This document shows, in pieces, positions 22,304-42,266 of a stretch of 64,000 nucleotides of DNA. This stretch comes from an uncultured Patescibacteria group bacterium. GTDB lineage: Bacteria; Patescibacteriota; Patescibacteriia; UBA2591; CALHIP01. The notes under the pieces are model-generated. The model saw only the letters and a list, made by a program, of their open reading frames with translations. It was not told the origin of the DNA and made no database searches. Position 1 is the stretch's first letter. Every line of letters begins with the position of its first letter. The translations under genes were made by a program, and so were the position numbers. The stretch covers positions 13,180 through 77,179 of the forward strand of contig CALHIP010000007.1 of NCBI GenBank assembly GCA_938030745.1, in the 5' to 3' direction.

Positions 22304-22332
22304 TTGACTTTTTAAATTTTATTCTTTATAAT
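22304..22332 (+). promoter_or_regulatory. sigma70-type promoter for the 23S-5S rRNA transcript (TTGACT-N17-TATAAT)
   Basis: The hexamers read directly are TTGACT at 22304-22309 and TATAAT at 22327-22332. A perfect DnaA box (TTATCCACA) abuts at 22288-22296. Confidence 0.55.
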
Positions 22333-22382
22333 ATAATTAAAATACAATGTTTATGAAACCAAAAAACCTTAAATTAAAAATT

Positions 22383-22465
22383 CCAAGCGGTTAATTTTGG
22401 TCATTTTCGCCTTAACCAAAAAAACCGCTTGGAAAAGCGGTTTTTTGGTTTCCGCTCTTTTAAAA
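22383..22465 (+). promoter_or_regulatory. rRNA leader with mutually exclusive hairpins, one of them terminator-like, and a boxA-like element (CGCTCTTTTAAAA)
   Basis: CCAAGCGGTT (22383-92) can pair with AACCGCTTGG (22423-32). Alternatively ACCGCTT-GGAA-AAGCGGT plus a T-tract at 22424-22449 forms an intrinsic-terminator-like hairpin. AGCGG/CCGCT precedes the boxA-like sequence at 22453-22465. Confidence 0.4.
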
Positions 22466-22487
22466 TTTTAAAAATAAAGTCTTATAC

Positions 22488-25468
<2,981 letters not shown>

Positions 25469-25511
25469 CCCATATAAGCCTTTATTTTTAAAAATTTAAT
25501 TTTTCTCATTT

Positions 25512-25634
<123 letters not shown>

Positions 25635-26203: not shown

Positions 26204-27487
26204 ATGAGATATATTGCCGATTTTCATCTTCATTCAAAATATTCCCGTGCTACTTCCCAATTAATGGATTTAAAACATTTAGATGAATGGGCAAGATTAA
26301 AAGGAATTCAAATTTTAGGTACTGGTGATTTTACCCATCCAGAATGGTTTAAAGAATTAAAAGAAAAACTAGAGCCTCTTAGTAATGGACTTTTTAAATT
26401 AAAAACCGCTAAAGATTTAGCGGTTTCTTTTATTTTAACAACTGAAGTCTCTTGTATTTATCCAAAAAAAGGTGCTCTTCGTCGGATTCATTTAATTGTT
26501 TTTTTTCCTGATTTTAAATGTGTTGAGAGATTTAATACTCAACTTTCTTGGTCTGGTAATTTAAAAGCTGATGGTCGACCAATTTTAGGTTTAGATGCTA
26601 AAGAAATTTTAAAAATGGCTTTAGATATCTCACCAGATGCCTTAGTTATTCCAGCTCATGTTTGGACGCCTTGGTTTTCAATTTTTGGATCAAAATCTGG
26701 TTTTGATTCAATTGAAGAATGTTTTGATGAGTTAACACCAGAAATTTATGCTATCGAAACAGGCCTTTCAAGTGATCCAGCAATGAATTGGCGATTATCA
26801 AAATTAGATAAAGTAGCAATTATCTCCTCTTCTGATTCTCATTCACTTCAAAATCTAGGTCGAGAAGCAACTGTTTTTGAGTTTTTAAATTATCCAAATT
26901 ATCTTGATATTGTTAAAGCAATTAAAAATAGTTCTATTCTTCAACGACAATTAATGTTAGATCAACCAACAATCGCTTATACTATTGAATTTTTTCCTGA
27001 AGAAGGAAAATATCATTTTGATGGTCATCGATTATGCAATGTTTCTTTTTCACCATCAGAGACAAAGAAAAGAGGTGGTAATTGTCCTGTTTGCGGTAAA
27101 CCTTTAACTATTGGTGTGATGCATCGGGTAGAAGATTTAGCTGATCGTCCAGAAGGATTTATTCCAGAAAAATCTGTTCCTTTCAAAAGTTTAGTTCCTT
27201 TAAGAGAAATCATCGCTGAGGCATTAAATGTAGATAAAAACTCAAAACTAGTAGAAAATGAATACCTTTCTTTAGTAAAAAGAGGAGGTAATGAATTTAA
27301 AATTCTTTTAGATCTAAATGAAGAAGAAATAAAAAAGATTGCTTCAAAAAGGATTGTTGAAGGAATTATTAAAATGAGAAATGGAGAAGTAACAAAAATT
27401 GCTGGTTATGATGGTGTTTATGGCAAAATCAGTGTTTTCGGGAAAAAAGAAGAAAAAAAAGAAAACAAGCAAGGTGTTCTCTTTTAA
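26204..27487 (+). CDS. PHP-domain nuclease of the endonuclease Q (EndoQ / TIGR00375) family with a C-terminal zinc ribbon
   Basis: The N-terminal PHP motif is YIADFHLHSKYSRATSQLM...ILGTGDFTHPEW. Other motifs are SSDSHS, LGREATVFEF and KYHFDGHRLCNV...CPVCGKPLTIGVMHRVEDLADRP. These match the order of conserved EndoQ blocks. Confidence 0.65.
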   Translation: MRYIADFHLHSKYSRATSQLMDLKHLDEWARLKGIQILGTGDFTHPEWFKELKEKLEPLSNGLFKLKTAKDLAVSFILTTEVSCIYPKKGALRRIHLIVFFPDFKCVERFNTQLSWSGNLKADGRPILGLDAKEILKMALDISPDALVIPAHVWTPWFSIFGSKSGFDSIEECFDELTPEIYAIETGLSSDPAMNWRLSKLDKVAIISSSDSHSLQNLGREATVFEFLNYPNYLDIVKAIKNSSILQRQLMLDQPTIAYTIEFFPEEGKYHFDGHRLCNVSFSPSETKKRGGNCPVCGKPLTIGVMHRVEDLADRPEGFIPEKSVPFKSLVPLREIIAEALNVDKNSKLVENEYLSLVKRGGNEFKILLDLNEEEIKKIASKRIVEGIIKMRNGEVTKIAGYDGVYGKISVFGKKEEKKENKQGVLF

Positions 27488-28310: not shown

Positions 28311-29534
28311 TTATAAATTAAAATTTTTCTTATATTTTTCTAATCCCTTCTTTAAAATCATCATTGCTTCTTTCAATTTTTCACAAGATAAAACAAAAGC
28401 AATCCGAAATTCATCTTTTCCTAAACCAGAAGTACTATAAAAACCACTCGCTGGAGCAACTAAAACTGTTTTTCTTTGGTAAGAAAATTTTGTTAGAAGC
28501 CATTGAGCAAAATGATCTGAATCTTTAAGCCAAGGAATTTTAACAATAAGATAAAAAGCACCTTTTGGCTTAACAACAATTGCTTCAGGGATTTTTTTTA
28601 TTTCGGTAAAAACAACATCTCTTCTTTTTTTATATTCAGAGACAATCTTTTTAAGATATTTTTCTGGATTCTCTAAAAGAGGAATGACAGCTAATTGTTC
28701 AACCATTGGCGAAGAAAGTCTGGCTTGAGCAAACTTAATTGCTGCTTCAATAACTTTCTTATTTTTACTTGCTAAAACACCAATTCTTGCTCCACAAGCA
28801 GAAAATCTTTTAGAAACACTATCAAGCAAAACTACTTGCTGAAGAATTTCAGGAAAACTCATCATCGAATAATAATTTTCATTATCATAAACAAATTCGC
28901 GATAAGTCTCATCAGAAAGGATAAAGAGATGATACTTTTTTGCTATTTCAATTATTGTCTTTAATTCAGATTTTTTATAAACAGTACCAGTTGGATTATT
29001 AGGGTTACAAATAATAATCCCCCTTGTTTTTTTGTTAATTTTTTTCTCAATTTCTTTTTGAGTTGGTAAATGGAAACCATTTTCTGCTAATGTTCTAATT
29101 GGTCTTAATTTAATTCCAGTAATTGAAGCATAACCATTATAATTTGTATAAAATGGTTCAAAGACAATTATTTCTTCATTTGGTTGACAAACAGCAGCAA
29201 AAGCAAATAAAATTGCTTCACTTCCACCAGTTGTGACAACTATTTCTGAAAGATCAAAATCAATACCAACACTTTTAAAATATTTCTGCCAAGCTAATTT
29301 TAACTCATTGATTCCATCAGAAGGAGTATAAGCTAAAATTTTTTCCTTAAAATTTCTTATTCTTTGTAAAATCTCTTTTGGCGTTTCTAAATCTGGTTGA
29401 CCAATATGAACTTCAAAAACTTTTATTCCTTTCTCTTTTATTTTTTGGAGAAGTGGAACAAATTTTCTAATTGGTGAAAATTGCGCTTCTTCAGCTCGAG
29501 ATGAGATTTTTATTTTGTTTCTTGTTTTAACCAT
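28311..29534 (-). CDS. PLP-dependent aminotransferase class I/II (aspartate/aromatic aminotransferase-like)
   Basis: A lysine-containing SKRFSACGARIG motif is present. It has the fold-type I size and layout. Confidence 0.8.
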   Translation of the reverse strand: MVKTRNKIKISSRAEEAQFSPIRKFVPLLQKIKEKGIKVFEVHIGQPDLETPKEILQRIRNFKEKILAYTPSDGINELKLAWQKYFKSVGIDFDLSEIVVTTGGSEAILFAFAAVCQPNEEIIVFEPFYTNYNGYASITGIKLRPIRTLAENGFHLPTQKEIEKKINKKTRGIIICNPNNPTGTVYKKSELKTIIEIAKKYHLFILSDETYREFVYDNENYYSMMSFPEILQQVVLLDSVSKRFSACGARIGVLASKNKKVIEAAIKFAQARLSSPMVEQLAVIPLLENPEKYLKKIVSEYKKRRDVVFTEIKKIPEAIVVKPKGAFYLIVKIPWLKDSDHFAQWLLTKFSYQRKTVLVAPASGFYSTSGLGKDEFRIAFVLSCEKLKEAMMILKKGLEKYKKNFNL

Positions 29535-29815
29535 TTTAAATAATTTTTCTCTACTTTATTAATTAACCAAGAAAAGATAGCTGGGATTTGATAAGGATGG
29601 TTTTCTTTAATTATTTTTTCAATTTTTTGATAATTTTTCTTCACTGTTTTAATGATCATCGCCCATTCTCTTGTTTTTTCTATTTTTTTCTTCCACCAAT
29701 ATTGCGAGTTAATTGGCCAATAATTAAGACAAGATGCTAATCTTTCTTTTAAAATTTTTTTAGCCAATTTTTCAGCTGATTTTTTATTAGGAAAGGTTGT
29801 GTAAACAATAATCAT
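29510..29815 (-). CDS. cutA: divalent-cation tolerance protein CutA
   Basis: Conserved blocks are MIIVYTTFPNKKSAEKLAKKIL...ASC and ...HPYQIPAI. It is about 100 aa. Confidence 0.7.
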   Translation of the reverse strand: MIIVYTTFPNKKSAEKLAKKILKERLASCLNYWPINSQYWWKKKIEKTREWAMIIKTVKKNYQKIEKIIKENHPYQIPAIFSWLINKVEKNYLKWLKQETK

Positions 29816-30279
29816 ACTTTTTTATAACCAACTGGAATGATTGCTAAAGGTCTTTGAGATTTTTCTAATTTTAAAATTTGAGAGATTTTATCTTCATCAA
29901 AGGCACCAACCCAACAAGTACCAAGACCTAAAGCAGTTGCTGCTAAAAGTAAATTTTCTGTGGCTGCTGCTGCATCCTGGATTGCATACAAATTTCGACC
30001 ACGTTGGCCATATCTTGAAGCAGTTTTTTCAATATCAGCAACGACAACAATAACAACTGGTGCTTCAGAAATAAAATATTGACCTAAAGCTGCTTCAGCA
30101 ATTTCAATTTTTGTTTTTTGATCACGAATTATTAAAAAATTAGTTGGATAGATAGCGCCAGCTGAAGGTGCCATTTTCCCTGCTTCAATAATTTTTTTAA
30201 TGTCTTTATCAGAAACATCTTTTTGTGAATCAAAACTCCGAACCGAATGTCTTTTTTTAATAACTTGCCAAAAATCCAT
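29812..30279 (-). CDS. nitroreductase-family flavoprotein; an internal Met start was chosen
   Basis: Nitroreductase motifs are KKRHSVRSFD...APSAGA...LGLGTCWVG. Confidence 0.7.
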   Translation of the reverse strand: MDFWQVIKKRHSVRSFDSQKDVSDKDIKKIIEAGKMAPSAGAIYPTNFLIIRDQKTKIEIAEAALGQYFISEAPVVIVVVADIEKTASRYGQRGRNLYAIQDAAAATENLLLAATALGLGTCWVGAFDEDKISQILKLEKSQRPLAIIPVGYKKV

Positions 30280-30283
30280 ATTT

Positions 30284-31021
30284 TTAATAGCCAATAGAGA
30301 GTCTTTCAATTAAAAAATTGGGAAAACCTTTCTTTCTCATTTTTTCTTGAGTTCTGTAATAATCATATTCTATCCGATGGTATTCTAAAGTCAAAGCTTC
30401 ATTGTCAAAGATAATAAAACTTGCTTTTGGATTTCGATCACGTGGTTGGCCAACAGAACCAGGATTGATAATATAGAAAGAATCTTTTTCAAACTTTAAA
30501 AATGCTTTATCTGGCGGAAATCTAAATTGATAAATTTTATTTTCTCTTTTTTCAAAAATTGTTGGGATATGTGAATGGCCAACAAATAAAACTTTTTCTT
30601 TAAAAAGAGTAAAATTTTCTTCAGCCTGATAAATTTCTAAAAGATATTCCCAAATCGGATCACGAAGTGAACCATGGGCAAGGATTATCTCTTTTTCTGG
30701 TTTCAAAGTTAAAGGCAGATTGCTTAAAATTTTTTTATTTTCTTGGGAAAGCTCTGAGGCATTAATTTTTACTGCTTGAGCAGCATAAGGATTAAAATCA
30801 AAAATTGAGATTTTTCCAATAACTGCTAAATCATGATTGCCTACTACAGAAATTATTTTTTTCTTTTTTAATAATTCTACACACTCATTTGGGTTTGGTC
30901 CATAACCGACAATATCTCCTAAATGCCAGATTTTTTTGATTCCCCTTTTTTCTAAATTAAAAAGAACTGCTTGAAAAGCCTCTAAATTTGAATGGACATC
31001 AGCTAAAATTCCTATTTTCAT
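30284..31021 (-). CDS. calcineurin-like metallophosphoesterase
   Basis: Motifs are MKIGILADVHSN, GDIVGYGP, VVGNHD and VGHSH. Confidence 0.7.
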   Translation of the reverse strand: MKIGILADVHSNLEAFQAVLFNLEKRGIKKIWHLGDIVGYGPNPNECVELLKKKKIISVVGNHDLAVIGKISIFDFNPYAAQAVKINASELSQENKKILSNLPLTLKPEKEIILAHGSLRDPIWEYLLEIYQAEENFTLFKEKVLFVGHSHIPTIFEKRENKIYQFRFPPDKAFLKFEKDSFYIINPGSVGQPRDRNPKASFIIFDNEALTLEYHRIEYDYYRTQEKMRKKGFPNFLIERLSIGY

Positions 31022-31034
31022 ATCAATTTAACTA

Positions 31035-31053
31035 AATCATTTACAGCGGCCGC
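31035..31053 (-). promoter_or_regulatory. 18-bp element ATCATTTACAGCGGCCGC (copy 1 of 2), 14 nt upstream of the phosphoesterase start codon; it contains the GC palindrome GCGGCCGC
   Basis: An identical 18-mer recurs at 35263-35282 upstream of the MFS start codon. Both copies are in the same orientation relative to the downstream gene. Confidence 0.5.
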
Positions 31054-31070
31054 TTTAAAGAGTTTAGTGG

Positions 31071-31622
31071 TTATTCGGATAATTTTTTTGTGGTAAAAAT
31101 AAAAATTTCTGTTTTTGGATCACGCCAAGCATCAGCTGGTAAACCAGCTTTATAAACACAAAGGCTACTTAAAAATTCTTCTAAATTATAATTGAATTCT
31201 TCTGCTACTTCTGGTAAGAAAACTCCACCTTTAAAACCCTTTTTGATAATTACCCCATGTTTTCCCAACTCTATTTCTTTAGATGGATCTTTTATTTTTC
31301 TCAATGGTGAAATAATTGAAATTTCAATCTTAATTTCTTTTAATTCTTCTAAACTTAAAGGAAAAAAACGAGTATCTTCAAAAGCAGCAGCAATAGCCAT
31401 TTTTGCTACTGCTTCAGCTAATGGATATCTTGGTTCTAAATGACCAATACAACCACGAAGATTACTATCCTTTTTTAAAGTCACAAAAACTGCCATTTTT
31501 TCTTTTAATTTCTCTGGTACTTCAAATTTTGGAATTTCTTTATTTTTTAAATAAAATTCTATTGAATCTCGAGCAATTTTTAATAATAATTTTTTTTCTT
31601 CTTCTTTAAATTCATTTTTCAT
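31071..31622 (-). CDS. AMMECR1-domain protein (AmmeMemoRadiSam system component A-like)
   Basis: The signature is LRGCIGHLEPRYPLAEAVAKMAIAAAFEDTRF. Confidence 0.8.
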   Translation of the reverse strand: MKNEFKEEEKKLLLKIARDSIEFYLKNKEIPKFEVPEKLKEKMAVFVTLKKDSNLRGCIGHLEPRYPLAEAVAKMAIAAAFEDTRFFPLSLEELKEIKIEISIISPLRKIKDPSKEIELGKHGVIIKKGFKGGVFLPEVAEEFNYNLEEFLSSLCVYKAGLPADAWRDPKTEIFIFTTKKLSE

Positions 31623-31631
31623 ACAATTAAA

Positions 31632-32528
31632 TTAATCAGCAAAACGATAAAGACCAAATTTTTTAGCTAAATTAATTGCTTCTTGATATTCTTGATCAGT
31701 AATTGTTCGAGAAAGTTCTTGATAATTAAATGCTTTATAACAAGGCCGATATTGATCCATAATATTTAAGAAAGTATCTTTTGAAATTTCTTCAGCTAAA
31801 AATTTCATAATTTTTTCTGTTCCAGCTAAATTATTTGGTAAAACAAGATGTCGGACAATTAGTCCTTTTTTTGCAATTCCATTTTCAATAATCAAATTAT
31901 TCACTTGGCGATGCATCTCCTTTAATGCTTCTTTTAAAATCTTAAAATAATTTGGCGCTGATGAATATTTTAAAGCTATTTCATCATCACTATATTTTGC
32001 ATCAGGCATATAAATATCAATTATTCCATCTAAAATTTTTAAAGTTTCAACAGAATCATAACCATTTGAATTATAAACTAAGGGAATTTTTAATCCTTTC
32101 TCAATAGCTATTTCTAACCCTTCTAAAATTTGAGGTACTTGAGATGTTGGTGTGACCAAATTAATATTATGACAACCGATTTTTTGTAAATAAATCATCA
32201 TTTCAGCCAATTGATAAGGAGAAACTTCCTCACCATAATCTAATTGAGAAATCTCATAATTTTGACAAAAAACACAAGCCAAATTACAGGAAGTGAAAAA
32301 AATTGTTCCAGAACCATAATTACCAACTAAACATTTTTCTTCACCAAAATGAGGATGAAAAGAAGAGACTTTTGCTTTCCTTCCTAAACGGCAGAACCCT
32401 TTTTCATTTTTTAATCGATTAACATTACATTTTCTCGGACAAACATGACATGGATTTAAAAAAGAAATTGCTTTTTTTATTCTTTTTTTTAATTCTTCTT
32501 TTGAAAGATTAAGATAAGAAGGAAACAT
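31632..32528 (-). CDS. radical SAM enzyme partnered with AMMECR1 (PflA/PflX-like, AmmeMemoRadiSam-type)
   Basis: An N-terminal Cys-rich segment is CHVCPRKCNVN...GFCRLG. The radical SAM cluster is TSCNLACVFCQN (CxxxCxxC). Confidence 0.8.
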   Translation of the reverse strand: MFPSYLNLSKEELKKRIKKAISFLNPCHVCPRKCNVNRLKNEKGFCRLGRKAKVSSFHPHFGEEKCLVGNYGSGTIFFTSCNLACVFCQNYEISQLDYGEEVSPYQLAEMMIYLQKIGCHNINLVTPTSQVPQILEGLEIAIEKGLKIPLVYNSNGYDSVETLKILDGIIDIYMPDAKYSDDEIALKYSSAPNYFKILKEALKEMHRQVNNLIIENGIAKKGLIVRHLVLPNNLAGTEKIMKFLAEEISKDTFLNIMDQYRPCYKAFNYQELSRTITDQEYQEAINLAKKFGLYRFAD

Positions 32529-32530
32529 GT

Positions 32531-32998
32531 TTATAAATAACGATATTTATTTATCTGGTAAATAGCAATGCCAGCAGCAACAGCAACATTTAATGATTCT
32601 TTTTGGCCATACATAGGTAAATAAATAATTTTTTCAGCTCTTTTCAATAAAGATTTTGAAACTCCTTTTATTTCATTACCAACAATTAAAAGCAATGGAA
32701 ATTTTGGTCTGAATTTAGTATATAAAATGCTTTTTTTTGTTTGTTCTAAAGCAACAATATAAAAACCTTCTTTTTTAAGTTTATCAACTATTCGCCAAGG
32801 TTGCCAATGGTGTTCCCAAAAAACAGTTTTTTCTGCTCCTAAAGATACTTTTTTCATTTTCTCTGAATCTGGAGTTCCAGTGATTCCACCTAAAATGATT
32901 TTATCAATACCAGCTGCATCAGCAGTACGGAAAATTGCACCAACATTAAAAAGAGAGCGGATATTATCTAATAAAAGATAAAATTTTTTAGATCTCAT
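32531..32998 (-). CDS. SPOUT-superfamily (SpoU/TrmH-like) RNA 2'-O-methyltransferase, small form
   Basis: Motifs are NIRSLFNVGAIFRTADAAGIDKIIL and LLIVGNEIKGVSK...LPMYG...SLNVAVAAGIAIY. Confidence 0.7.
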   Translation of the reverse strand: MRSKKFYLLLDNIRSLFNVGAIFRTADAAGIDKIILGGITGTPDSEKMKKVSLGAEKTVFWEHHWQPWRIVDKLKKEGFYIVALEQTKKSILYTKFRPKFPLLLIVGNEIKGVSKSLLKRAEKIIYLPMYGQKESLNVAVAAGIAIYQINKYRYL

Positions 32999-33008
32999 TC
33001 TCTCAATT

Positions 33009-34073
33009 TTATTTTAAAATAGATTTTAAAGCTTGAGATTTTTCTGAAGAATTTAATTTTGCTTTACGAATTGCTTTCTCTAAAATAAAAATTGATAAAT
33101 CATATTGTTTTTTATTGATTGGATAAGGTGTACCATCTTTACCACCGTGAGCAAAAGAATATCTGACTGGGTCATGAAAACTCGGTTTAGCTCCATAAAT
33201 TAATTCGGAGATTAAAGCTAAAGCTCTTAAAGTTTTTGGCCCAACTCCTTCATAAGAAACTAATTCCTCATAACTTTTTGGATTTTTCTCATGAGCAGTA
33301 AATAAAATTTTTTGAATTCTTTTCTCAGTATCTGGTTTTAATGGAATCCAATGATATCGAGGCATATTTAAAATTCTAATTTTTTTAAAATCTTTAAGAA
33401 GAGTTTGAAAAGGACCTCGAACAATTTCTGTTGAAACTTCTCTTGTTTTTTTACTTTCTAAAGCAACTAAATTTAAAACTTTACCTTTCCAATCGCAACA
33501 GATAGCTGAATGTGGTTCTTCAACAAAATTTTTTAATTTTTCAGATAGCCAATGATAACGTCTAGCCATTTGAATTTCTGTATTCATCCCTTGCTGAATC
33601 ACTGTCCAATTACCATTTTTTGTGAAAATAAAAGTATGATGATAAATTTGAAAACCATCCTGTAAGCAAGAATTATCAACTTTAGCTACCATTTTACTAG
33701 CATAAATAAGTTTTGGTGTAAAATCTAATGAAAATTTTTGGCCATATTCTTCAATTTCAATTGGTGCTTTTCTTGAAGTTTTTCCTTTACCACCAACAAC
33801 AAAAAGCCCTAAAGATTTTTCTGTTCCTTTCAAAGCTTCTTTAATTGCTCCACAGACAGTAGTACTTAAACCAGAAGAATGCCAATCAAAACCTAAGACA
33901 CAGCCAAAAGATTGAAACCAATAAGGATCGGAAAGCCGACGTAAAACCTCCTCTTGAGAAAATTCATAAACCATTGCTTCGATAATTGCTCGAGCCAATC
34001 TTTTCATTCTTCTGAAAAGCCAAGCTGGTATTGTTCCCCAATGGAGAGGTAAATTAGCGATTCCTGTTCTCAT
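33009..34073 (-). CDS. conserved hypothetical protein with a C-terminal helix-hairpin-helix-like motif, possibly of the DUF763 type; it is not MEMO1
   Basis: A HhH-like motif is YEGVGPKTLRALALISE. No MEMO1 HAG/HS motifs are present. The family assignment is unverified. Confidence 0.45.
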   Translation of the reverse strand: MRTGIANLPLHWGTIPAWLFRRMKRLARAIIEAMVYEFSQEEVLRRLSDPYWFQSFGCVLGFDWHSSGLSTTVCGAIKEALKGTEKSLGLFVVGGKGKTSRKAPIEIEEYGQKFSLDFTPKLIYASKMVAKVDNSCLQDGFQIYHHTFIFTKNGNWTVIQQGMNTEIQMARRYHWLSEKLKNFVEEPHSAICCDWKGKVLNLVALESKKTREVSTEIVRGPFQTLLKDFKKIRILNMPRYHWIPLKPDTEKRIQKILFTAHEKNPKSYEELVSYEGVGPKTLRALALISELIYGAKPSFHDPVRYSFAHGGKDGTPYPINKKQYDLSIFILEKAIRKAKLNSSEKSQALKSILK

Positions 34074-34079
34074 ATTTTA

Positions 34080-35252
34080 TTATTTTACCATTTTCTTCTC
34101 AGTAGTAAAAAGCATTAATAAAATTGCTAGAATTGAAGTAAAAAAAGCAAAAAGAAAAACAGTTCTTGGACCGAAAAATTGCCAGAAGAAGCCAGCTAAA
34201 GATGAGGCAGCTAAAAATACTAAACCAGAAATCATTTGGAAAAATCCTAAAGTTTGACCTTTAAATAAAGGATGAGAAAATTCAGAAATGAAAGCAATTT
34301 GACTCGGCCTTAATGTTGCTTTGGCAAAACCAAATAAAACTAAAAGAGGAATAATTAAAGAATTTTTAAAACCAAAAACAAAACCTAAAACTGAAAGACT
34401 CCAAAAAAGATAAGCTAAAATAATTATCTTTTTTTTACCAATTTTATCAGCCAAACGAGAGATAGGATAAGCCATCAACATCATACTCATTGTCATGATT
34501 AAATAAAGAATTGGTATTGAAGTAACTGACCAGCCATTTTCTCTGGCATAGATAAGTAAAAATGAATAACTAAAAAATCCTAAAGCAAACAAAAGATTGG
34601 CAAAAAAGAAAATTTTTAAAGAGGGATGAAATTTACCAGGTGAAAATTTTAAAAAGGAGGGTTGAACTGGTAAAGCTCTTTCTTTGACCAAAGTGAAAAT
34701 TAAATAGGCACCAATTAAAGAAGGTAAGCCAGCAATAAAAAACATTTCCCGCGGCTTAAGGAATCTAATTAAAATAATGGCTGAAATAATTCCGAAAACT
34801 GCACCTAAATGATCCATTGCATCTAAAAAACCAATCGTTTGGGTTTTAAAACGATGATCAGCTATATCTAAAGCTAAAATATCTCTTGGTGTTTCACGAA
34901 TCTTACCAGCTCGATCTAAAATTTTAAAAGGAAAAAGTAGCCCCCAAAAATAAGTGATGGAATAGCCTAAACGAGCTAATCCACTTATTAAATAACCAAG
35001 CCAGATAAATGGTTTTCTTTTACCTAATTTATCAGAGAGCCAACCAGCAAAAGTTTGAGAAAAAGAAACAACTGCTTCACCGATTCCGTCAATTAGACCT
35101 AAAACACTCATTGGTGCTTTTAAAATCTCTCTGACAAAAACTGGCCAGATTGAATGACCAATTTCTGCTCCCAAATCGTTTAAAAAAGAAGTCGAGCCAA
35201 ATACAAGAATTGTTTTCTTTCTTCGATTATTAAAATCTTTTATTTTTTCCAT
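34080..35252 (-). CDS. MFS-family transporter
   Basis: There are about 12 predicted hydrophobic helices. An MFS loop motif (GWLSDKLGKRKP) is present. Confidence 0.8.
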   Translation of the reverse strand: MEKIKDFNNRRKKTILVFGSTSFLNDLGAEIGHSIWPVFVREILKAPMSVLGLIDGIGEAVVSFSQTFAGWLSDKLGKRKPFIWLGYLISGLARLGYSITYFWGLLFPFKILDRAGKIRETPRDILALDIADHRFKTQTIGFLDAMDHLGAVFGIISAIILIRFLKPREMFFIAGLPSLIGAYLIFTLVKERALPVQPSFLKFSPGKFHPSLKIFFFANLLFALGFFSYSFLLIYARENGWSVTSIPILYLIMTMSMMLMAYPISRLADKIGKKKIIILAYLFWSLSVLGFVFGFKNSLIIPLLVLFGFAKATLRPSQIAFISEFSHPLFKGQTLGFFQMISGLVFLAASSLAGFFWQFFGPRTVFLFAFFTSILAILLMLFTTEKKMVK

Positions 35253-35262
35253 AATCTTTCCT

Positions 35263-35282
35263 ATATCATTTACAGCGGCCGC
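35263..35282 (-). promoter_or_regulatory. copy 2 of the ATCATTTACAGCGGCCGC element, 13 nt upstream of the MFS start codon and just downstream of the rtcA stop
   Basis: The 18-mer is identical to copy 1 at 31035-31053. Confidence 0.5.
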
Positions 35283-35311
35283 GTGAAATCGTATAGTAAA
35301 GGAATTTAGAT

Positions 35312-36322
35312 TTATTCTTTAAAAATTTTATTTTTTTCTTTATCTATTTTAATTTTAATATCTAAAAATTTCTCTAAAAGCCAAATATGAGTTAAAAGAT
35401 GATTAGTAATTTTTGAAACAGTAAAAGCAAATGGTTTTTTACTAATAGCTAAATAAAGGACAATTTGGTCAGCTAAATAAGGATCGATTACTTTTTCTGA
35501 TTGATAATAATCAGAAAATTGTTGAGCTACTTCTTGACCTACTTTCTCAGCTGGCTTACCTTTTTCACCTAAAGAGGAAAAACCAGCTAAGATATTTTCA
35601 AATTTTACTTTCAAAAAAACAAAAGTTCCAGCTGATAATGCTTCTACCCTTTCTGCTAATATATTTATTCCTGAAAAATTTTTAAGAAAAGATTGAAGAG
35701 CATTTTTCTGACGTTCGGCAATAGAAAAAGGTAAATTTGCGACAACTGATAAACCAGAAATTTCTTCTATTTTTCCTCTTTCTAAAAAATCACTTGCCAC
35801 TAATTTCTGTATTGGCTGAACAAACAATCTTATTCTTCCTCCTCCTTTTGGATAAAAACCATATTTTTCTAATTTTGCTTCTGCTTTTATTCCTAATTTT
35901 TCTATCATTGGTAAAAAAACTTCGGAAAAATAATGAAAAGGCGGAGCCAACGGATTATGAGTTCCACCAACAATTAAAACTTCAGAAGGATGTTTTGAAA
36001 AAGAAAGAGGTAATAAAATAGTCTGAGCTACTAATGTTGTTGAACCAGCTGTACCAATATCAAATTCAAATCTACCAAATTTTATTTTTTTTGGTTCAAA
36101 TCTTAAAATTTTTGAGCCAATTTTTGCACCAGAAACTTTTGCCTGAGAAATTTCCTCAGCTGCTTTAACAGCAACTAAATGTTGAGCCTGAAGTCCTGGC
36201 TTTTTTCTTTTTGCCCGAATATTGAAAATTTCAATTGCTTGAGCAGCTAAAACTGATAAAGAAAGAGAAGTTCTTAAAATTTGCCCACCACCCTCACCAT
36301 AACTTCCATCTATTCTTAACAT
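35312..36322 (-). CDS. rtcA: RNA 3'-terminal phosphate cyclase
   Basis: The N-terminus is MLRIDGSYGEGGGQILRTSLSLS. It has the size expected of RtcA. Confidence 0.8.
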   Translation of the reverse strand: MLRIDGSYGEGGGQILRTSLSLSVLAAQAIEIFNIRAKRKKPGLQAQHLVAVKAAEEISQAKVSGAKIGSKILRFEPKKIKFGRFEFDIGTAGSTTLVAQTILLPLSFSKHPSEVLIVGGTHNPLAPPFHYFSEVFLPMIEKLGIKAEAKLEKYGFYPKGGGRIRLFVQPIQKLVASDFLERGKIEEISGLSVVANLPFSIAERQKNALQSFLKNFSGINILAERVEALSAGTFVFLKVKFENILAGFSSLGEKGKPAEKVGQEVAQQFSDYYQSEKVIDPYLADQIVLYLAISKKPFAFTVSKITNHLLTHIWLLEKFLDIKIKIDKEKNKIFKE

Positions 36323-36347
36323 AAAAATTGAAAATGGTTATTGAAAA

Positions 36348-37853
36348 TTAGAAATTTTTTGTTTTATTCTTTCTGCCTCTTTTAATAACTCTCACCATCC
36401 CTTTATTAGCGTCAACCTCAACAAAATCCCCATCTTTTAAAACCTTAGTAGCAATTTTGGTTCCAATGATACAAGGAATGCCGAGTTCACGGGAAACAAT
36501 CGCTGCATGACAGGTTATTCCGCCTTCATCAGTGACAATAGCAATACATTTTTTAAGAGCTGGAGCAAAATCGGGCGTTGTCATTGGAGTAACTAAAATT
36601 TCTCCTCTTTTTATATTTTTAATTTCTTCTTTAGTTTTTATGACTTTTACTCTACCAGAAATTTTTCCTGCCGAAGCAACTACTCCTTTGATTACCTTTT
36701 CTACTTGAGAAGACTTCTCTTCCAAGACTAAATAAGGATTCATTTCTTTTCCGAGATAAATTTTAGATTTTCCATTTTTGATATCAAAAACACAAAGTTT
36801 AGTTCTCGCTTTTAATATTTTTAATATTTTTTTATCAACTTTTTTTTCCTGCCAGATTTCCTTCATTTCATGAGGAAGAATATATCGGACTAATTGAAAA
36901 TGAATTTTTAGTCTCTTTGCCATTTCTTTGATTAAGATTTCTGTTTTAAAATTAAAATAAGAATTATAATATTTTCTTATATCTTGAAGAATAGCAGCAT
37001 CTTGTAAGGCAAAAATGATAGACTTTTCTTTTTGAGTAAGTTTAAGATTTTTCATTAAATTCTTTTGATCAATTTTTAGTTTTTTATAAAAATTATTTTT
37101 CTCCTTTATCTCTTCTTTTAAATTAACTTTTTTAGATATTTTTTTTATTTCTCTTAAATAGTCTTTTTCTTTTTTAACCTTCGGTCCCCGATAGTCATAA
37201 ATCATAAAACCAAATTTATTAACTAGATTTCTTATTTTTATTTTTATCTTTGAAAAAGGAATATTTTTAATTTTTTGAGCTAATTTTAATATCTCAATTT
37301 CTTCCTGAAGAATAAAAGATGGTTTAGAAGGGGTAATGAGGATGTTTAGAATTTTATTGTATTCCCGCCTGTTAATTTTTCTCTGTTGTAAAATTTTTTT
37401 CACCTCTCGAAAAATGGCCTTTTCTCCCCACAGCCAGATAGGAAAAGAAAAAAAACAAAAAAGACGGTAGTCTTCTACTAACAGGGAATAAATTTTGAAT
37501 ATTTTTTTATCAGAAAATTTACTTAATTTTTTTCCTTCTAGTATTTTTAAATCTCTTACCATCTTTTTAGCATATTTTTTCGTTTTTGAAATTAGATAAG
37601 AAGTAAATCGAAAATTCTTTGAGATTTTCTTTAAAATCGCTCGACCAAAATTGTTTAAATGGCGAAAACGAACAGAGGCACTAGCCCAATCGCCTCTTAA
37701 AATATTAATTTGTTCTATTGGAGGAGCACCATAAATTTTAGTCATTTGTGGGGTAGAGGAATAATAATATATTAAATCTAAAATAAAAGGGTGAACCTTA
37801 CTGGCCCTTTTTCTAAATTGATACCAGTTTTGAGGATTTATTTTTTTTATCAT
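36348..37853 (-). CDS. protein with a C-terminal PEP-utilizing-enzyme mobile (phosphohistidine) domain and an uncharacterized 400-aa N-terminal region
   Basis: The C-terminal segment VTPMTTPDFAPALKKCIAIVTDEGGITCHAAIVSRELGIPCIIG is the swivel phosphohistidine domain of PEP synthase / PPDK-like enzymes. Confidence 0.6.
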   Translation of the reverse strand: MIKKINPQNWYQFRKRASKVHPFILDLIYYYSSTPQMTKIYGAPPIEQINILRGDWASASVRFRHLNNFGRAILKKISKNFRFTSYLISKTKKYAKKMVRDLKILEGKKLSKFSDKKIFKIYSLLVEDYRLFCFFSFPIWLWGEKAIFREVKKILQQRKINRREYNKILNILITPSKPSFILQEEIEILKLAQKIKNIPFSKIKIKIRNLVNKFGFMIYDYRGPKVKKEKDYLREIKKISKKVNLKEEIKEKNNFYKKLKIDQKNLMKNLKLTQKEKSIIFALQDAAILQDIRKYYNSYFNFKTEILIKEMAKRLKIHFQLVRYILPHEMKEIWQEKKVDKKILKILKARTKLCVFDIKNGKSKIYLGKEMNPYLVLEEKSSQVEKVIKGVVASAGKISGRVKVIKTKEEIKNIKRGEILVTPMTTPDFAPALKKCIAIVTDEGGITCHAAIVSRELGIPCIIGTKIATKVLKDGDFVEVDANKGMVRVIKRGRKNKTKNF

Positions 37854-37879
37854 GAAAATACGAAATAAATGTCAGATTT

Positions 37880-38776
37880 TTATTCAGCAATTTTTTTCTC
37901 AAATTCTTCGCCTTCTTTTATTAATTCATCGATCAATTCTGGTGTTATCTTTATTGTCTCCTCTTTCCCTTCTTCTGAAGAATAATGAATTAAAATTTCT
38001 TTTCCACCTAAAATTTCTAAAGAAAAACCTTCTGTTTCTTTAAAACCACCTTTATATTTTTCTACCCATTTTTCTAAACTCTCTTTTCCTTTAACTTTTT
38101 CAATGACTTTAGCCAAAAAAGATTCACCAATACTTTGATGAGTTACTAAATATCTTTCTAATTGGTTACCATAAGGAGCATATTTTTCTGGATTTTTTTC
38201 AACAATATTTTCAAAAACAGTACCAACAGTTAAATACTTTTTAATAATTTTAGCCACATTAGTAGCAGCGCGTGTCCAACAAGTGGAATTTTTGTCTTTT
38301 TTTTCTAAAATTAATTTGTCACTCTCTTCAACCAAAAATTTAACTACCTCTTTTCTTTTTACTGCATTAGTCAATTCTTCATAAGGAACAAAATCCAATC
38401 CTTTTTCTTCAATAAATTTTTTAACCCTTCCTGGTCCAAGTTTATATTCTTTATCAAGTTCTTCTTGAATTTTCTCTTGAATTTCTTCAAAACTTGCTTC
38501 CGGTGTGAAATATTTATAGAACAAAGCTTCTAATCCTGTTTGTAAAGTTCTTTTTCTTGGACTGCCAACAACTAATCCTACTTCTGGTTGTAGGTTAATT
38601 TCTTCACCTTTTTTGCGGGCTTGAGTTCTACCTACTTCTGATAATAGAACTTCATAATCAGACTGACCAGGTAGTTTCTCTGCCTTTTCTCCATGGCGAA
38701 GAACATGAAGAATTACTTTACTTTTGGATTCTTTAATTTCTTTTGATTCAAAAAATTTTTCACCTTCTTTATTCAT
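37880..38776 (-). CDS. histidine-phosphatase-superfamily protein (phosphoglycerate-mutase-like branch) with a long C-terminal extension
   Basis: The catalytic RHG motif (LHVLRHGEKAE) lies near the N-terminus. Confidence 0.55.
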   Translation of the reverse strand: MNKEGEKFFESKEIKESKSKVILHVLRHGEKAEKLPGQSDYEVLLSEVGRTQARKKGEEINLQPEVGLVVGSPRKRTLQTGLEALFYKYFTPEASFEEIQEKIQEELDKEYKLGPGRVKKFIEEKGLDFVPYEELTNAVKRKEVVKFLVEESDKLILEKKDKNSTCWTRAATNVAKIIKKYLTVGTVFENIVEKNPEKYAPYGNQLERYLVTHQSIGESFLAKVIEKVKGKESLEKWVEKYKGGFKETEGFSLEILGGKEILIHYSSEEGKEETIKITPELIDELIKEGEEFEKKIAE

Positions 38777-38794
38777 AATATTTTAAAGAATTAG

Positions 38795-39487
38795 TTAATT
38801 TTCGGACCAACCTGTCTGCAGGAGGCAGGAATTGATCCAAAAAATAATTTAAGGAGCTCGACCTTTCTAAAATTGAATTTAAATTCTAACTCCTTAAGGT
38901 ATAAATAAAAGTTATTCTTTTTAATGCCGTGATATTTCATAAAATGTTCTTTGGCAAAAGTCCAGAAACTTTCTACTCTATTGATATGGGTCTAATGATT
39001 TTTGGGATGAATTAGATATTTTTATTTGTTAATTTTGCTGGCCAAAAAGTTTTAAATCATGATAGTTTCTGAATCTATCAGTATAGAAGATGCTTCCTTT
39101 TTCAGTTTTTTCTTTAAGCAATGTTTCTGATTTAACATTTGGAACAATGATGGTATAAATACGATTACTTCGCTCTAAAATGCCTAAAACAATGACCTTT
39201 TCAGCTGCGCCTTGACCACCGAAATAGGCTTCGTCAATTTCTCCTTTTAATTTTTCAAATTCCTGATCTAGAAATTCAACAATTTTTTCTCTGAACCTTT
39301 GATATCTTTGACTAACCGTATTGTAGCTCAAATTTAGAATTTTTGCTAACTGAAATCTCTAAAGGAAATATTTTAAAACTTCTAAATCTGTTTTAATTTT
39401 TCTGAGACTATACTTTTTCTGACATTTTTGCCATTTAATTCTCTTATCTTTAAGCCGGTAAAGATAGTTCTGACCACAAAAAAACAT
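38795..39487 (-). pseudogene. decayed IS1595-family (ISXO2-like) transposase gene with multiple frameshifts and stops; a remnant insertion sequence
   Basis: Three out-of-frame fragments were found. The first is an N-terminal zinc ribbon (MFFCGQNYLYRLKDKRIKWQKCQKKYSLRKIKTDL) with an SD (AGAGGAAG). The second is a middle DDE fragment (EIDEAYFGGQ...VLGILERSNRIYTIIVPNVKSETLLKEKTEKGSIFYTDRFRNY). The third is a C-terminal fragment (THINRVESFWTFAKEHFMKYHGIKKNNFYLYLKELEFKFN). Confidence 0.65.
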
Positions 39488-39717
39488 TTTCTTCCTCTTA
39501 AAATTTTGACAGCCAATTATATACCATAATTTTTCGCTTAAATACTACACTTTTAGTATATAGCTGGTCCAAATTTTAATTAGCTTATCAAATGGTTTTT
39601 ATAAGATTAATTGGAGGTTTACTTTAAAAATTTTTTCAAACTAATTAATGGATGTCAAATAAAGAAAATTTTTTTGATAAGACTTTTCTTAAATAATTAT
39701 TTTTGAAAGGATAAAAA

Positions 39718-39933
39718 TTAAAAACCAGAAAAAAGACGCCGAGCTAAAATAAAAGAGACTCCTCCCCATAAAAGGGATAAAATCAAAATCAATCTTCCTT
39801 CTTTTTTCAATTGGGGTTCTGATAAAAGAAACAATCCGAAAATCAATCCTGCTAATAAAGGATTAAGTAAGGTAATAAGAAGTCCAACAATAACTAATTT
39901 TTGTTTTGATTTCAAAACAATTCTTTCATCCAT
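39718..39933 (-). CDS. small two-helix membrane protein of 71 aa
   Basis: It has two hydrophobic segments (LVIVGLLITLLNPLLAGLIFGLFLL and LILILSLLWGGVSFILA). It lies downstream of rtcB. Confidence 0.35.
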   Translation of the reverse strand: MDERIVLKSKQKLVIVGLLITLLNPLLAGLIFGLFLLSEPQLKKEGRLILILSLLWGGVSFILARRLFSGF

Positions 39934-39948
39934 AAATAAATCAATGAT

Positions 39949-40227
39949 TTACTCGATTATCTTATAAACAATATCTCCTTCTTTGACTGGTTGATCTACT
40001 TTCAAACCAATTGATTGGCCTTTGCTTGCTTTTTCAACATTTTTGTGTTCAATCTGCATTGAAGAGACAGTTTGAGTAAATTCCTGACCATGACCAACAA
40101 TTTTGATTGTGTCTCCAACTTTAATTTCATCACTTAATTCAACAACTGCAACTGAAATTTTGTTGAAATAGTGAGTAATTTTTCCAATTTGAACTTCTGG
40201 CATAAATTTATATTTATTTTTATTCAC
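39949..40227 (-). CDS. standalone EF-Tu domain-2-like beta-barrel mini-protein of 92 aa; its start overlaps the rtcB stop
   Basis: GKITHYFNKISVAVVELSDEIKVGDTIKIVG ... QSIGLKVDQPVKEGDIVYK resembles the GTP_EFTU_D2 barrel of EF-Tu/IF2/SelB. It overlaps rtcB by 8 nt. Confidence 0.5.
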   Translation of the reverse strand: MNKNKYKFMPEVQIGKITHYFNKISVAVVELSDEIKVGDTIKIVGHGQEFTQTVSSMQIEHKNVEKASKGQSIGLKVDQPVKEGDIVYKIIE

Positions 40228-41662
40228 CTTTAATAACTGCTAAAGGTATAAGTTTAGCTACTTTTTTTGATAAACCTGCTTTATGAACAACATCAACAAC
40301 CTCATCAATATTTTTATATGCCTCTGGTGCTTCTTCAGCTAAGCCTTTTAATGACCAACATTTAACAATAATTCCTTTTGCTTGTAATTTTTTAATTATT
40401 TCCTGACCAGAGATTGATCGAATTGCTGCATGTCTAGACATTGTTCGACCAGCTCCATGGGTGGTAGAATAAAATGCTTCTTCTCCTTGGCTAGTTCCGA
40501 CTAAAACATATGAAGCAGTTCCCATTGAGCCAGGAATTAAAACTGGCTGGCCAACCTCCCGATATCTTTGAGGAATCTCTGGATGATGAGGAGGAAAGGC
40601 TCTGGTTGAACCCTTTCGATGCATTGCTACTTCTGTTTCTTTACCATCAATAATATATTTTTCTTTTTTAATAATATTGTGAGCGACATCGTATAATAAT
40701 TGCAAAGAACTTTTTTCACCAAAAATACTTTTCCAAGCCTTTCTAACAAAATAAGTAATCATTTGACGATTTGCCCAGGCATAATTTGCTGCCGAAGCTG
40801 AAGCAGATAAACCTCTTTGACCTTCATTAGAATTAAAGGGTACACAGGCAAACTCTCGATCAGGAACTCTTATTTTATATTTCTCCATCAATCTCATAAA
40901 TTCATTTATATAATCAGTTGCTACTTGATGACCAAGTCCACGACTACCACAATGAATCATTATAACAATTTGATCTTTGAATAACCCAAAAACTTGAGCT
41001 ACTTCTTCATTAAAAATTTCTTCTACTTTTTGAATTTCAAGAAAATGATTTCCTGAACCAAGTGTTCCTACTTGATCGCGACCTCTATTTTTCGCTTTAA
41101 TTGAAACAAAAGAAGCATCAGCCCATTCTAATCTACCATTTGCCTCACAGTTTTCGACATCCTCTTTTTCACCATAACCTTTCTCAACTAAATATCTTGC
41201 TCCACCTTCCAAAATTTTATCAATCTGTTCAATTGAGAGTTTAATTTGCCTACCTCTTCCTAATCCAGATGGAACTTCCTTTTGAATCTCAGTTGCTAAT
41301 TTTTCTAAATAAGGTTTTGTTTCCTTTTCAGAATATTCTGAAAGGAGTAATCTTACTCCACAATTTATATCATAACCTTGCATTCCCGGAGAAATTATTC
41401 CGTCAGAAATCCTTATCGCTGCTACTCCACCAATTGGACTGGAATAACCTTCATGACAATCTGGCATGGCGATTCCGTATTTTTGGATTCCTGGTAAAGT
41501 ACAGAGATTTATTAATTGATAAAGTGATTTATCCCTGAAAACATCTTCTAACATTTTCTCTGAAACATAAATTCTTGCTGGCACTCGCATGTCAGCTCGA
41601 AAGCTTTTAGGGATTTCCCATAAATAATCATTAATTTTTTTAAAATCTTTTTTAGAGATCAT
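40220..41662 (-). CDS. rtcB: RNA-splicing ligase RtcB (3'-phosphate / 5'-hydroxyl RNA ligase)
   Basis: Motifs are MPDCHEGYSSPIGGV, HNAGR-type motifs (HGAGRTMSR), and the metal-binding histidines characteristic of RtcB. Confidence 0.9.
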   Translation of the reverse strand: MISKKDFKKINDYLWEIPKSFRADMRVPARIYVSEKMLEDVFRDKSLYQLINLCTLPGIQKYGIAMPDCHEGYSSPIGGVAAIRISDGIISPGMQGYDINCGVRLLLSEYSEKETKPYLEKLATEIQKEVPSGLGRGRQIKLSIEQIDKILEGGARYLVEKGYGEKEDVENCEANGRLEWADASFVSIKAKNRGRDQVGTLGSGNHFLEIQKVEEIFNEEVAQVFGLFKDQIVIMIHCGSRGLGHQVATDYINEFMRLMEKYKIRVPDREFACVPFNSNEGQRGLSASASAANYAWANRQMITYFVRKAWKSIFGEKSSLQLLYDVAHNIIKKEKYIIDGKETEVAMHRKGSTRAFPPHHPEIPQRYREVGQPVLIPGSMGTASYVLVGTSQGEEAFYSTTHGAGRTMSRHAAIRSISGQEIIKKLQAKGIIVKCWSLKGLAEEAPEAYKNIDEVVDVVHKAGLSKKVAKLIPLAVIKGE

Positions 41663-42075
41663 ACATCGAAAACAACAATAAGAATAAATTTATCCTTTTC
41701 CTTTTTAAAAGAAAATTCATACCAGGTTACTCCTTTAATTTCCGTTGTAAATCTTTTAACTTTTTGACCGAAAATTTCTCCTTCTAATTTTTTCTCCGTA
41801 GATTTTTTTATTTTTACTTTTTCATAAAATGAATCATTTAAATCCATTTGATAAACTAATTCAGCTAAAAAATTGAAAATTAAATTTTCAAAATTTTCTC
41901 CTTCAATTTTAAAAGGTGTAACAATTTCTTCTTTTAAAAGTTCTGGTCGAGTTCCTTCTTTGATTGCTAACAAAATATTATTTAAAATTTCTTCTAAATT
42001 TTTACCCCAAACTTTAATTTTAAGATCAGCTGGGTGTTCTAAAATCTCATAATTTTTTGAGGCCAAGTTTTTCAT
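41659..42075 (-). CDS. archease (RtcB activator / chaperone)
   Basis: The N-terminal motif is YEILEHPADLKIKVWG (consensus YE.LEHTAD). It is about 138 aa. It lies immediately upstream of rtcB and overlaps it by 4 nt. Confidence 0.75.
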   Translation of the reverse strand: MKNLASKNYEILEHPADLKIKVWGKNLEEILNNILLAIKEGTRPELLKEEIVTPFKIEGENFENLIFNFLAELVYQMDLNDSFYEKVKIKKSTEKKLEGEIFGQKVKRFTTEIKGVTWYEFSFKKEKDKFILIVVFDV

Positions 42076-42190
42076 AAAGTTCTTTAATTAATTTTTTTTG
42101 TTCTGCTAAATCTAAAACTTCTCGACGGATTCGAGCTTTTTCTTGACGAATAAATTTCCGTAAACTTTTTGGCAATCTTTTTTTTCCCAT
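42047..42190 (-). CDS. possible leaderless small basic ORF of 47 aa, overlapping the archease start in another frame
   Basis: The sequence is MGKKRLPKSLRKFIRQEKARIRREVLDLAEQKKLIKELYEKLGLKKL. The ATG lies 6 nt downstream of a TGGTATAAT extended -10. It is not in the ORF track and could be non-coding 5' UTR. Confidence 0.25.
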   Translation of the reverse strand: MGKKRLPKSLRKFIRQEKARIRREVLDLAEQKKLIKELYEKLGLKKL

Positions 42191-42196: not shown

Positions 42197-42246
42197 ATTA
42201 TACCAAAATTATTTTTCTTGGCAAGATTAATTAAATTTGTTATAAT
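42197..42246. promoter_or_regulatory. back-to-back divergent promoters sharing a palindromic -35 (TTGGCA/TGCCAA)
   Basis: On the plus strand, TTGGCA (42218-23), N17, TATAAT (42241-46) drives ychF. On the minus strand, TTGCCA (42224-19), N16, TGGTATAAT (42202-42197) drives the archease operon. Confidence 0.5.
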
Positions 42247-42266
42247 AATTTTTGATTTCTAATTTT

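Follow-up and report, generated by a model that had tools for sequence, protein, structure and literature searches.

An operon in which archease precedes the RNA ligase RtcB is known from archaea and from diverse bacteria, for example Pyrococcus horikoshii (Desai et al. 2014, PMC3973293). In Escherichia coli, the RNA repair operon rtcBA is controlled by the sigma-54 activator RtcR (reviewed in PMC10630183). We compared with these and other described systems an array of 17 consecutive minus-strand open reading frames (ORFs), among them archease, RtcB and RtcA, in DNA from an uncultured Patescibacteria group bacterium (contig CALHIP010000007.1, positions 13,180 to 77,179). This stretch of 64,000 nucleotides is referred to as the window, and all coordinates are counted from its first letter. 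A preliminary description of the array had proposed a composite RNA repair module, with the functional categories of the bacterial Pnkp/Hen1 cassette supplied by unrelated protein families. At a probability of roughly 60%, we favor a different reading, in which the array is a co-directional, operon-like stretch strung from independently conserved modules and not one dedicated machine of the Pnkp/Hen1 kind.

The 17 ORFs run from 42190 down to 28311 and cover ~14 kb in the ORF listing; the same genes were called independently on an identical public contig. Computed from the ORF coordinates, the junctions from the first ORF (s47) to the gene for a protein with a PEP-utilizers domain are –29, –4, –8 (or +16 with an ATG start), +15, +941 and +26 nt, and those from this gene to the terminal aminotransferase gene are +25, +59, +6, +10, +2, +9, +49, –26 (or +4), –4 and –25 nt. 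Ten of the 16 junctions are at most 10 nt or overlap, five measure 15–59 nt and one measures 941 nt. The tightly spaced 17-gene array of the preliminary description was thus borne out by the listing, the junctions and the independent gene call. Its statement that most genes lie 0–10 nt apart or overlap holds for these ten junctions and missed the 941-nt gap, which contains a decayed insertion sequence. Counting ORFs of 80 aa or more, the array (13) is also the longest same-strand run of the window, the next longest having seven. A candidate sigma-70-like promoter on the minus strand (42224–42197; TTGCCA-16-TG-TATAAT with an extended TG, 11/12, a match to the consensus only) sits directly upstream of the first ORF, and a terminator scan found no convincing intrinsic terminator inside the array, only weak intragenic stems. 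From the promoter-like site at the head and the lack of internal terminators, we infer that the array genes are probably co-transcribed from a promoter at ~42200.

For comparison with relatives, we collected ~110 loci anchored on RtcA, on the histidine phosphatase of the array or on its DUF763 protein and annotated them with the window proteins. Many of these loci (numbered with an L) are on short contigs, and those from metagenomes were assigned to taxa solely by their GC and gene content. Families were assigned by Pfam and NCBIfam profile searches, which confirmed every family named in the preliminary description, from archease, RtcB and RtcA to SPOUT and the AMMECR1/radical SAM pair.

The head of the array resembles the archease-RtcB operon. 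Archease, the RtcB activator (41659..42075, minus strand; PF01951, 95.9 bits, full length), lies immediately upstream of an archaeal/eukaryal-type RtcB of 480 aa (40220..41662, minus strand), a 3'-phosphate/5'-OH RNA ligase, and the end of the archease gene overlaps the RtcB start by 4 nt, the two being translationally coupled. RtcB matches PF01139 at 547.7 bits over profile positions 1–426 of 426 and aligns with P. horikoshii RtcB over residues 7–479 (E = 1.5e-163). In the pairwise alignment the motifs GYDINCGVRL, GSGNHFLE, GSRGLGHQ, YDVAHNI and HGAGR are identical, and these cover the metal-binding and guanylylation residues Asp95, Cys98, Asn202, His203, His234, His329 and His404 (P. horikoshii numbering). 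The locus differs from the known operon in its host, a member of the Candidate Phyla Radiation (CPR), in the RtcA and many unrelated genes that follow on the same strand, and in a small lysine/arginine-rich ORF of 47 aa in front of archease (s47, 42047..42190, minus strand). This ORF overlaps the archease start and matches no Pfam family, and homologues of 47–50 aa are found upstream of archease in L015, L020 and L102/L103.

RtcA, the RNA 3'-terminal phosphate cyclase (35312..36322, minus strand), starts ~4 kb downstream of RtcB, with five or six unrelated genes between them. It scored 392 bits on TIGR03399 (cutoff 250) and matched PDB entry 4o89 with E = 2.8e-71; the nucleophile His, the residue that would be adenylylated and that aligns to P. 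horikoshii His307, is kept in TNHLLTHIW. Archease, RtcB and RtcA all look catalytically intact by sequence, so that a complete RtcB-type RNA sealing pathway is encoded. In this predicted pathway, RtcA would turn RNA 3'-phosphate ends into 2',3'-cyclic phosphates, and RtcB with archease, GTP and Mn2+ would join 3'-phosphate or 2',3'-cyclic phosphate ends to 5'-OH ends. RtcB is also known to join DNA 3'-phosphate ends. To this extent the proposed RNA repair module stands, as these three are genuine RNA-end repair enzymes; its extension to a composite machine with the neighboring genes does not.

As in E. coli rtcBA, RtcB and RtcA of the window lie on one strand within 6 kb and have the same predicted chemistry. 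Unlike the E. coli enzyme, the window RtcB is of the long, archease-dependent type and not of the 408-aa type (PRK09588, 194 bits against a cutoff of 407). No RtcR-like regulator (CARF plus sigma-54 AAA+) was found in the array or in its six flanking genes (ychF, recX, a UPF0020 methyltransferase, folD, Endonuclease Q and a small methyltransferase). The core of the array is archease-RtcB and RtcB/RtcA of already known kinds, without RtcR in the array or flanks. In a protein search, the nearest relatives of RtcA outside the CPR were from Nitrospirota and Thermodesulfobacteriota at 52–55% identity; the closest of these (55%) stand alone beside lnt and prfB. A recent transfer of RtcA from archaea had been suggested by a GTDB scan that returned only DPANN and Asgard archaeal loci, but this was rejected because the scan uses query-specific peptide patterns and because the bacterial relatives at 52–55% identity are closer.

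The near-complete array was present only in close relatives, in which the DUF763 protein is 75–84% identical (L015, L016, L019, L020, L099). Wherever the contig reaches, these relatives also keep ychF upstream (in the window at 42252–43328, plus strand, divergent from the array) and/or folD downstream (27499–28302, plus strand, convergent with it; confirmed by Pfam). As these flanking genes are unrelated to the array and are nevertheless kept with it, its recurrence looks like inherited synteny. The arrangement noted in the preliminary description recurs beyond this genome, but its full set occurs only in close relatives that also keep ychF/folD. The content of the array varies even among them, L016 having no SPOUT gene and L019 no radical SAM gene. 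Besides the window, only L015 and L020 have RtcB and RtcA in one array. CPR relatives at a greater distance retain no more than sub-blocks. In L100, the order RtcA-DUF763-SpoU-nitroreductase is followed by folD, and there is no RtcB within 6–7 kb; in L102, archease-RtcB-barrel-DUF763-RNaseH-like-LigD_N stands between ychF and folD, and RtcA is absent from the surrounding 10 kb.

We picture the array as a chromosomal segment between ychF and folD, syntenic in one Patescibacteria clade, in which five modules would be strung together. The first, s47-archease-RtcB with RtcA, would constitute the standard RtcB-type healing-and-sealing pathway. The second would comprise a small beta-barrel protein and the DUF763 protein, with Endonuclease Q (EndoQ) beyond folD, and may be tied to DNA base repair. 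The third, separable module would be the histidine phosphatase and a swivel-His protein that lacks an ATP-grasp domain; the fourth, the SPOUT gene, the radical SAM/AMMECR1 pair and a metallophosphoesterase, probably with RNA-modification or housekeeping functions; and the fifth, a transporter, metabolic genes and a dead IS1595 element that seems to have replaced a gene of tRNA-thiolation type. Genes other than archease, RtcB and RtcA would most simply be co-transcribed passengers.

The main competitor of this modular reading is an extended RNA repair system of the CPR, in which archease-RtcB, RtcA, the barrel and DUF763, perhaps with SPOUT, would act together and DUF763, as a new component that processes nucleic-acid ends or lesions, would feed RtcB or RtcA. 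We consider such a system unlikely, although several observations speak for it. The DUF763 protein (33009..34073, minus strand; PF05559, 455 bits, full length), the HhH-containing hypothetical protein of the preliminary description, has an HhH motif at its C terminus and numerous His, Asp and Cys residues that are invariant, and it retains 58–61% identity across phyla; no solved structure or fold relative was detected in the PDB. DUF763 lies directly downstream of RtcA in L015, L016, L099 and L100, whereas in L019, L020 and the window a single gene intervenes. In L102 it comes right after RtcB-barrel, and in L077, L080, L085 and L097 one gene separates it from RtcB; the order is archease-RtcB-NIF3-DUF763 in L077, L080 and L097, and an uncharacterised ORF of 526 aa takes the place of NIF3 in L085. 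In an unbiased sample, 6 of 16 low-GC DUF763 loci had an Rtc gene. In L102, DUF763 is further followed by an RNaseH-like gene and one for a LigD_N 3'-phosphoesterase domain.

Some of these observations weigh directly against the modular reading. Roughly a dozen related CPR loci have DUF763 no more than a few genes from RtcA or RtcB, in three local arrangements, and the clade of L077, L080, L085 and L097 lost the ychF and folD flanks and yet keeps RtcB with DUF763, which may reflect selection rather than inertia. Moreover, the presence of several predicted RNA modifiers (SPOUT, AMMECR1 and, in the relatives, a ThiI-NFACT-R protein) makes a looser theme of RNA maintenance possible. On balance, we see a rather small chance that DUF763 is functionally coupled to RtcA/RtcB specifically in the CPR.

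Two side observations concern these loci. In a second CPR clade (L077, L080, L088, L097), the gene between RtcB and DUF763 is a divergent member of the NIF3/DUF34 family. In L102/L103, a relative at 62% identity, positions 11139–12537 hold the RNaseH-like gene (PF04308) and the stand-alone LigD_N 3'-phosphoesterase domain gene after DUF763, the latter being another end-healing enzyme beside RtcB-barrel-DUF763.

What tips the balance against the extended system is the company that DUF763 keeps elsewhere. The CPR loci that carry it with Rtc genes appear to be one inherited region, since they share ychF/folD or ELP3-like plus methyltransferase flanks. Outside the CPR, none of 64 DUF763 loci (GC at least 0.40) had RtcB, and in the two that had RtcA it was on the other strand at a distance of over 6 kb, whereas the same 64 loci had the barrel in ten cases, a Zn-ribbon in nine and EndoQ in six. 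Conversely, DUF763 was found in 0 of 13 archaeal RtcA loci and in neither of two distinct Nitrospirota-like RtcA loci (one of them present on two contigs). The barrel of the window (39949..40227, minus strand; 92 aa; PF16325, 33.3 bits; PF03144, 27.7 bits) resembles the C-terminal domain of Peptidase_U32 and domain 2 of EF-Tu. It is the commonest conserved neighbor of DUF763 in other lineages: orthologues with 39–83% identity stand beside DUF763 in L044, L047, L053, L059, L061, L062, L067, L068, L101 and L102. Among the loci with GC of at least 0.40, the barrels were 39–58% identical to that of the window, and in 8 of the ~39 with enough upstream sequence the barrel was directly upstream of DUF763 on the same strand.

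The EndoQ homologue of the window (26204..27487, plus strand; PDB 5zb8, E = 6.5e-52) lies just beyond folD, and its orthologues, at 54–58% identity, are directly downstream of DUF763 in L044, L047, L059, L062 and L068. Barrel, DUF763 and EndoQ orthologues form a compact same-strand cassette in unrelated higher-GC lineages without Rtc genes, and the loci represent at least three or four lineages, ~60% apart in the identity of DUF763. Several CPR loci have UDG family 4 after DUF763, which in L085 and L097 comes within one or two genes, and UdgX lies ~3 kb from DUF763 on pSymB of S. meliloti. At the rhizobial and haloarchaeal plasmid loci of DUF763 there were no Rtc genes nearby, and this UdgX on pSymB was the only such partner. 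Because EndoQ, UDG family 4 and UdgX recur as its partners, DUF763 looks linked to DNA base repair, and the barrel, DUF763 and EndoQ are more plausibly tied to that process than to RNA sealing.

In the cassette loci (L044, L047, L059, L062, L068, L041), barrel, DUF763 and EndoQ are sometimes interrupted by a non-orthologous radical SAM gene. Membership of the window radical SAM enzyme in such a barrel-radical SAM-DUF763-EndoQ cassette was considered and rejected, as the identity is only 26–28% and is confined to the core region. A broader proposal is that DUF763 and the barrel make up a new, widespread nucleic-acid repair module, coupled to RtcB/RtcA in Patescibacteria and to EndoQ elsewhere. 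We regard this as doubtful; if true, the module would link lesion or break processing to RtcB-type ligation, a connection previously unrecognised. We found no prior description of linkages involving DUF763, RtcB-AMMECR1, Patescibacteria RtcB or EndoQ-radical SAM in the literature, although the RNA-repair survey of Burroughs and Aravind (2016) might hold one.

A more skeptical view than the modular reading would hold that the array is an accident of neighborhood, with even RtcA and RtcB functionally unlinked and in separate housekeeping roles such as RNA processing instead of repair. The restriction of a shared RtcB-RtcA array to three loci and the separation of the two genes in L100 and L102 speak for this view. 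We nevertheless find it quite improbable, as RtcA is a classical functional partner of RtcB, the two being joined in the E. coli rtcBA operon, and the chance that the two would fall within 6 kb of each other in a genome of ~1 Mb is roughly 1%.

The remaining alternative, that of the preliminary description, requires the phosphatases, the phosphotransfer protein and the SPOUT enzyme to belong with RtcB. The histidine phosphatase (37880..38776, minus strand) is a branch 1 member of its superfamily that passes PF00300 at 26.2 bits against a threshold of 21.7; the match covers residues 23–85 only, the N-terminal third, with the RHG motif present as VLRHGEK. It belongs to a small CPR-specific family with 67 homologues. 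Next to it is the PEP-utilizers or swivel-His protein of 501 aa (36348..37853, minus strand; PF00391, 90.7 bits, residues 415–485), in which a middle domain precedes a phosphohistidine swivel domain at the C terminus; the latter has the conserved motif TCHAAIVSRE, and His449 is invariant in the alignment. With hhalign the protein aligned end to end, at a probability of 100%, to residues 347–819 of an 819-aa CPR protein with PPDK_N and PEP-utilizers domains, indicating that it lacks the ATP-grasp domain. In agreement, PPDK_N (PF01326) gave no match to it, and no ATP-grasp partner gene was found in the array.

The PDB matches of the swivel-His protein were confined to the swivel region. This protein shares the swivel domain with the dikinases rifampin phosphotransferase and PEP synthase (PDB 5fbs, 5hv1, 8a8e) and is collinear with full-length CPR homologues, but differs from these enzymes in having no PPDK_N and in being paired with a CPR-specific histidine phosphatase. 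The phosphatase gene is directly beside PEP-utilizers genes in L015, L016, L104 and L105, and the L017 cluster has two such genes a few kb further upstream. In L017, L104 and L105, where Rtc genes are missing from the vicinity, it stands among two to five PEP-utilizers paralogues and a PPDK_N ATP-grasp protein. Both the phosphatase and the swivel-His genes are absent from the close relatives L020 and L099. The pair is a separable CPR module, resembling a rifampin-phosphotransferase-like phosphorelay, and an insertion that some versions of the array have and others do not.

The SPOUT gene (32531..32998, minus strand) encodes a SpoU/TrmH-clade 2'-O-methyltransferase of 155 aa that comprises the catalytic domain only (PF00588, 119.9 bits). 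It scored below every equivalog cutoff, namely RlmB (TIGR00186, 112.8 against 160), TrmH (NF008295, 72.4 against 227) and TrmL (TIGR00185, 37 against 190). The closest solved structure is that of Aquifex TrmH, a tRNA Gm18 methyltransferase (1zjr, E = 7.7e-22). In the loci examined, SPOUT always adjoins DUF763 and never RtcB, and it is missing from L016, L102 and L077/L080/L085/L097, all of which have RtcA or RtcB.

The calcineurin-like metallophosphoesterase of 245 aa (30284..31021, minus strand; PF12850 and PF00149) belongs to an uncharacterised ApaH/PrpE-like subfamily and scored below the YfcE and phosphodiesterase cutoffs. Its closest structure was the uncharacterised protein 3rqz (E = 4.7e-55), followed by ApaH enzymes, and there was no Pnkp entry among its ten solved-structure matches. 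As it also travels with AMMECR1, the earlier suggestion that it heals RNA ends in the manner of Pnkp lost its footing. AMMECR1 itself (31071..31622, minus strand; PF01871, 184.9 bits) scored 185.6 bits on TIGR04335 (cutoff 99) and adjoins the gene of a radical SAM enzyme of an unclassified subfamily (31632..32528, minus strand; PF04055, 54 bits), an arrangement that recalls the AmmeMemoRadiSam system (TIGR04335/TIGR04336/TIGR04337). In contrast to that system, the radical SAM enzyme stays below the TIGR04337 cutoff (21.2 bits, where 220 are required), and no Memo gene was found in the array or its flanks. Orthologues of the radical SAM enzyme occur only in close relatives.

In the composite model, the histidine phosphatase or metallophosphoesterase would heal the RNA ends, the PEP-utilizers protein would transfer phosphate, RtcB would seal, and SPOUT would 2'-O-methylate the junction against re-cleavage. 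All the named enzyme classes do stand in one tight same-strand array headed by a promoter-like site, SPOUT is not assignable to TrmH, RlmB or TrmL at the equivalog level, and the phosphatase module of Pnkp is likewise a calcineurin-type metallophosphoesterase; yet the model is very improbable, since its parts do not co-vary with RtcB across the loci, the metallophosphoesterase is ApaH-like, the swivel-His protein has neither an ATP-grasp domain nor a partner for one, and the known targets of TrmH-clade SPOUT enzymes are internal nucleotides in folded tRNA or rRNA and not RNA termini. RtcB chemistry, moreover, needs neither kinase nor phosphatase, which leaves the proposed end-healing partners without a rationale. 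The likeness to the Pnkp/Hen1 cassette extends only to abstract categories, a ligase with phosphoesterases and a 2'-O-methyltransferase nearby; among the array proteins, Pfam and NCBIfam detected neither a Pnkp module (kinase, phosphatase or ligase) nor a Hen1 methyltransferase. Were the composite model true, the array would be a second, convergent system for healing, sealing and marking RNA, and the evidence does not support this.

The 941-nt gap (38777–39717) is filled by the remnant of an IS1595-family transposase (38791..39516, minus strand), recognized by PF12762 on a 100-aa fragment; three-frame translation showed a reading frame broken by frameshifts and stops. The scar occupies the slot in which L015 and L020 carry a gene for a ThiI-type PP-loop plus NFACT-R_2 protein, a predicted alternative synthase of 4-thiouridine (s4U) in tRNA (PMC4075521). 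We considered whether a remnant of this gene underlies the scar and rejected the idea, as tblastn found no trace of the PP-loop. A 10/12 promoter-like site is also present within the gap, at 39658–39630.

Between the gap and the barrel, a hydrophobic membrane peptide of 71 aa (39718..39933, minus strand; no family found) is 73% identical to a 73-aa ORF at the same position of L015; it also occurs in L020 and is limited to close relatives. The major facilitator superfamily (MFS) transporter (34080..35252, minus strand; PF07690, 126 bits) represents a lineage-specific insertion that separates RtcA from DUF763, found in only three loci (the window, L019 and L020) and absent from this position in L015, L016, L099 and L100. 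At the 3' end of the array are three minus-strand housekeeping genes, for a nitroreductase (29812–30309), CutA (29510–29815) and a class I/II aminotransferase (28311–29534; NF005744, 567.9 bits against a cutoff of 389). The MFS transporter, nitroreductase, CutA and aminotransferase have no RNA link. In the relatives, an MmeI-type restriction-modification gene lies inside the array of L099 (753–4256) and a PaaX_M/Cas2-like gene inside that of L016 (11557–12090); the array region tolerates insertion of mobile or defence genes.

Upstream of the array, a divergent promoter-like partner for ychF is located at 42218–42246 on the plus strand. Beyond ychF, RecX and a 416-aa methyltransferase of the UPF0020/N6_N4 type (weakly Trm14-like) are encoded on the minus strand (43405–45275). 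The arrangement of ychF with this methyltransferase is kept in L015, L020 and L102, and recX in L015 and L020 only. The window has a GC content of ~29% and contains bacterial 23S and 5S rRNA genes, and its nearest relatives in public databases carry Patescibacteria annotations. Within 21678–25631 (plus strand), the tRNA genes Arg-CCT, Ala-CGC and Leu-TAG precede the 23S-5S pair, with no adjoining 16S gene; the 23S gene has no large insertion, and all six tRNAs of the window are intron-free.

The locus points to three further lines of interest. The consistent pairing of the histidine phosphatase with arrays of swivel-His proteins hints at an unexplored phosphotransfer system, and DUF763, the barrel and EndoQ form a conserved, uncharacterised cassette whose possible role in nucleic-acid repair merits testing. 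For the organisms themselves, the retention of archaeal-type archease/RtcB together with RtcA in Patescibacteria with reduced genomes suggests that repair of RNA breaks matters in these symbionts.

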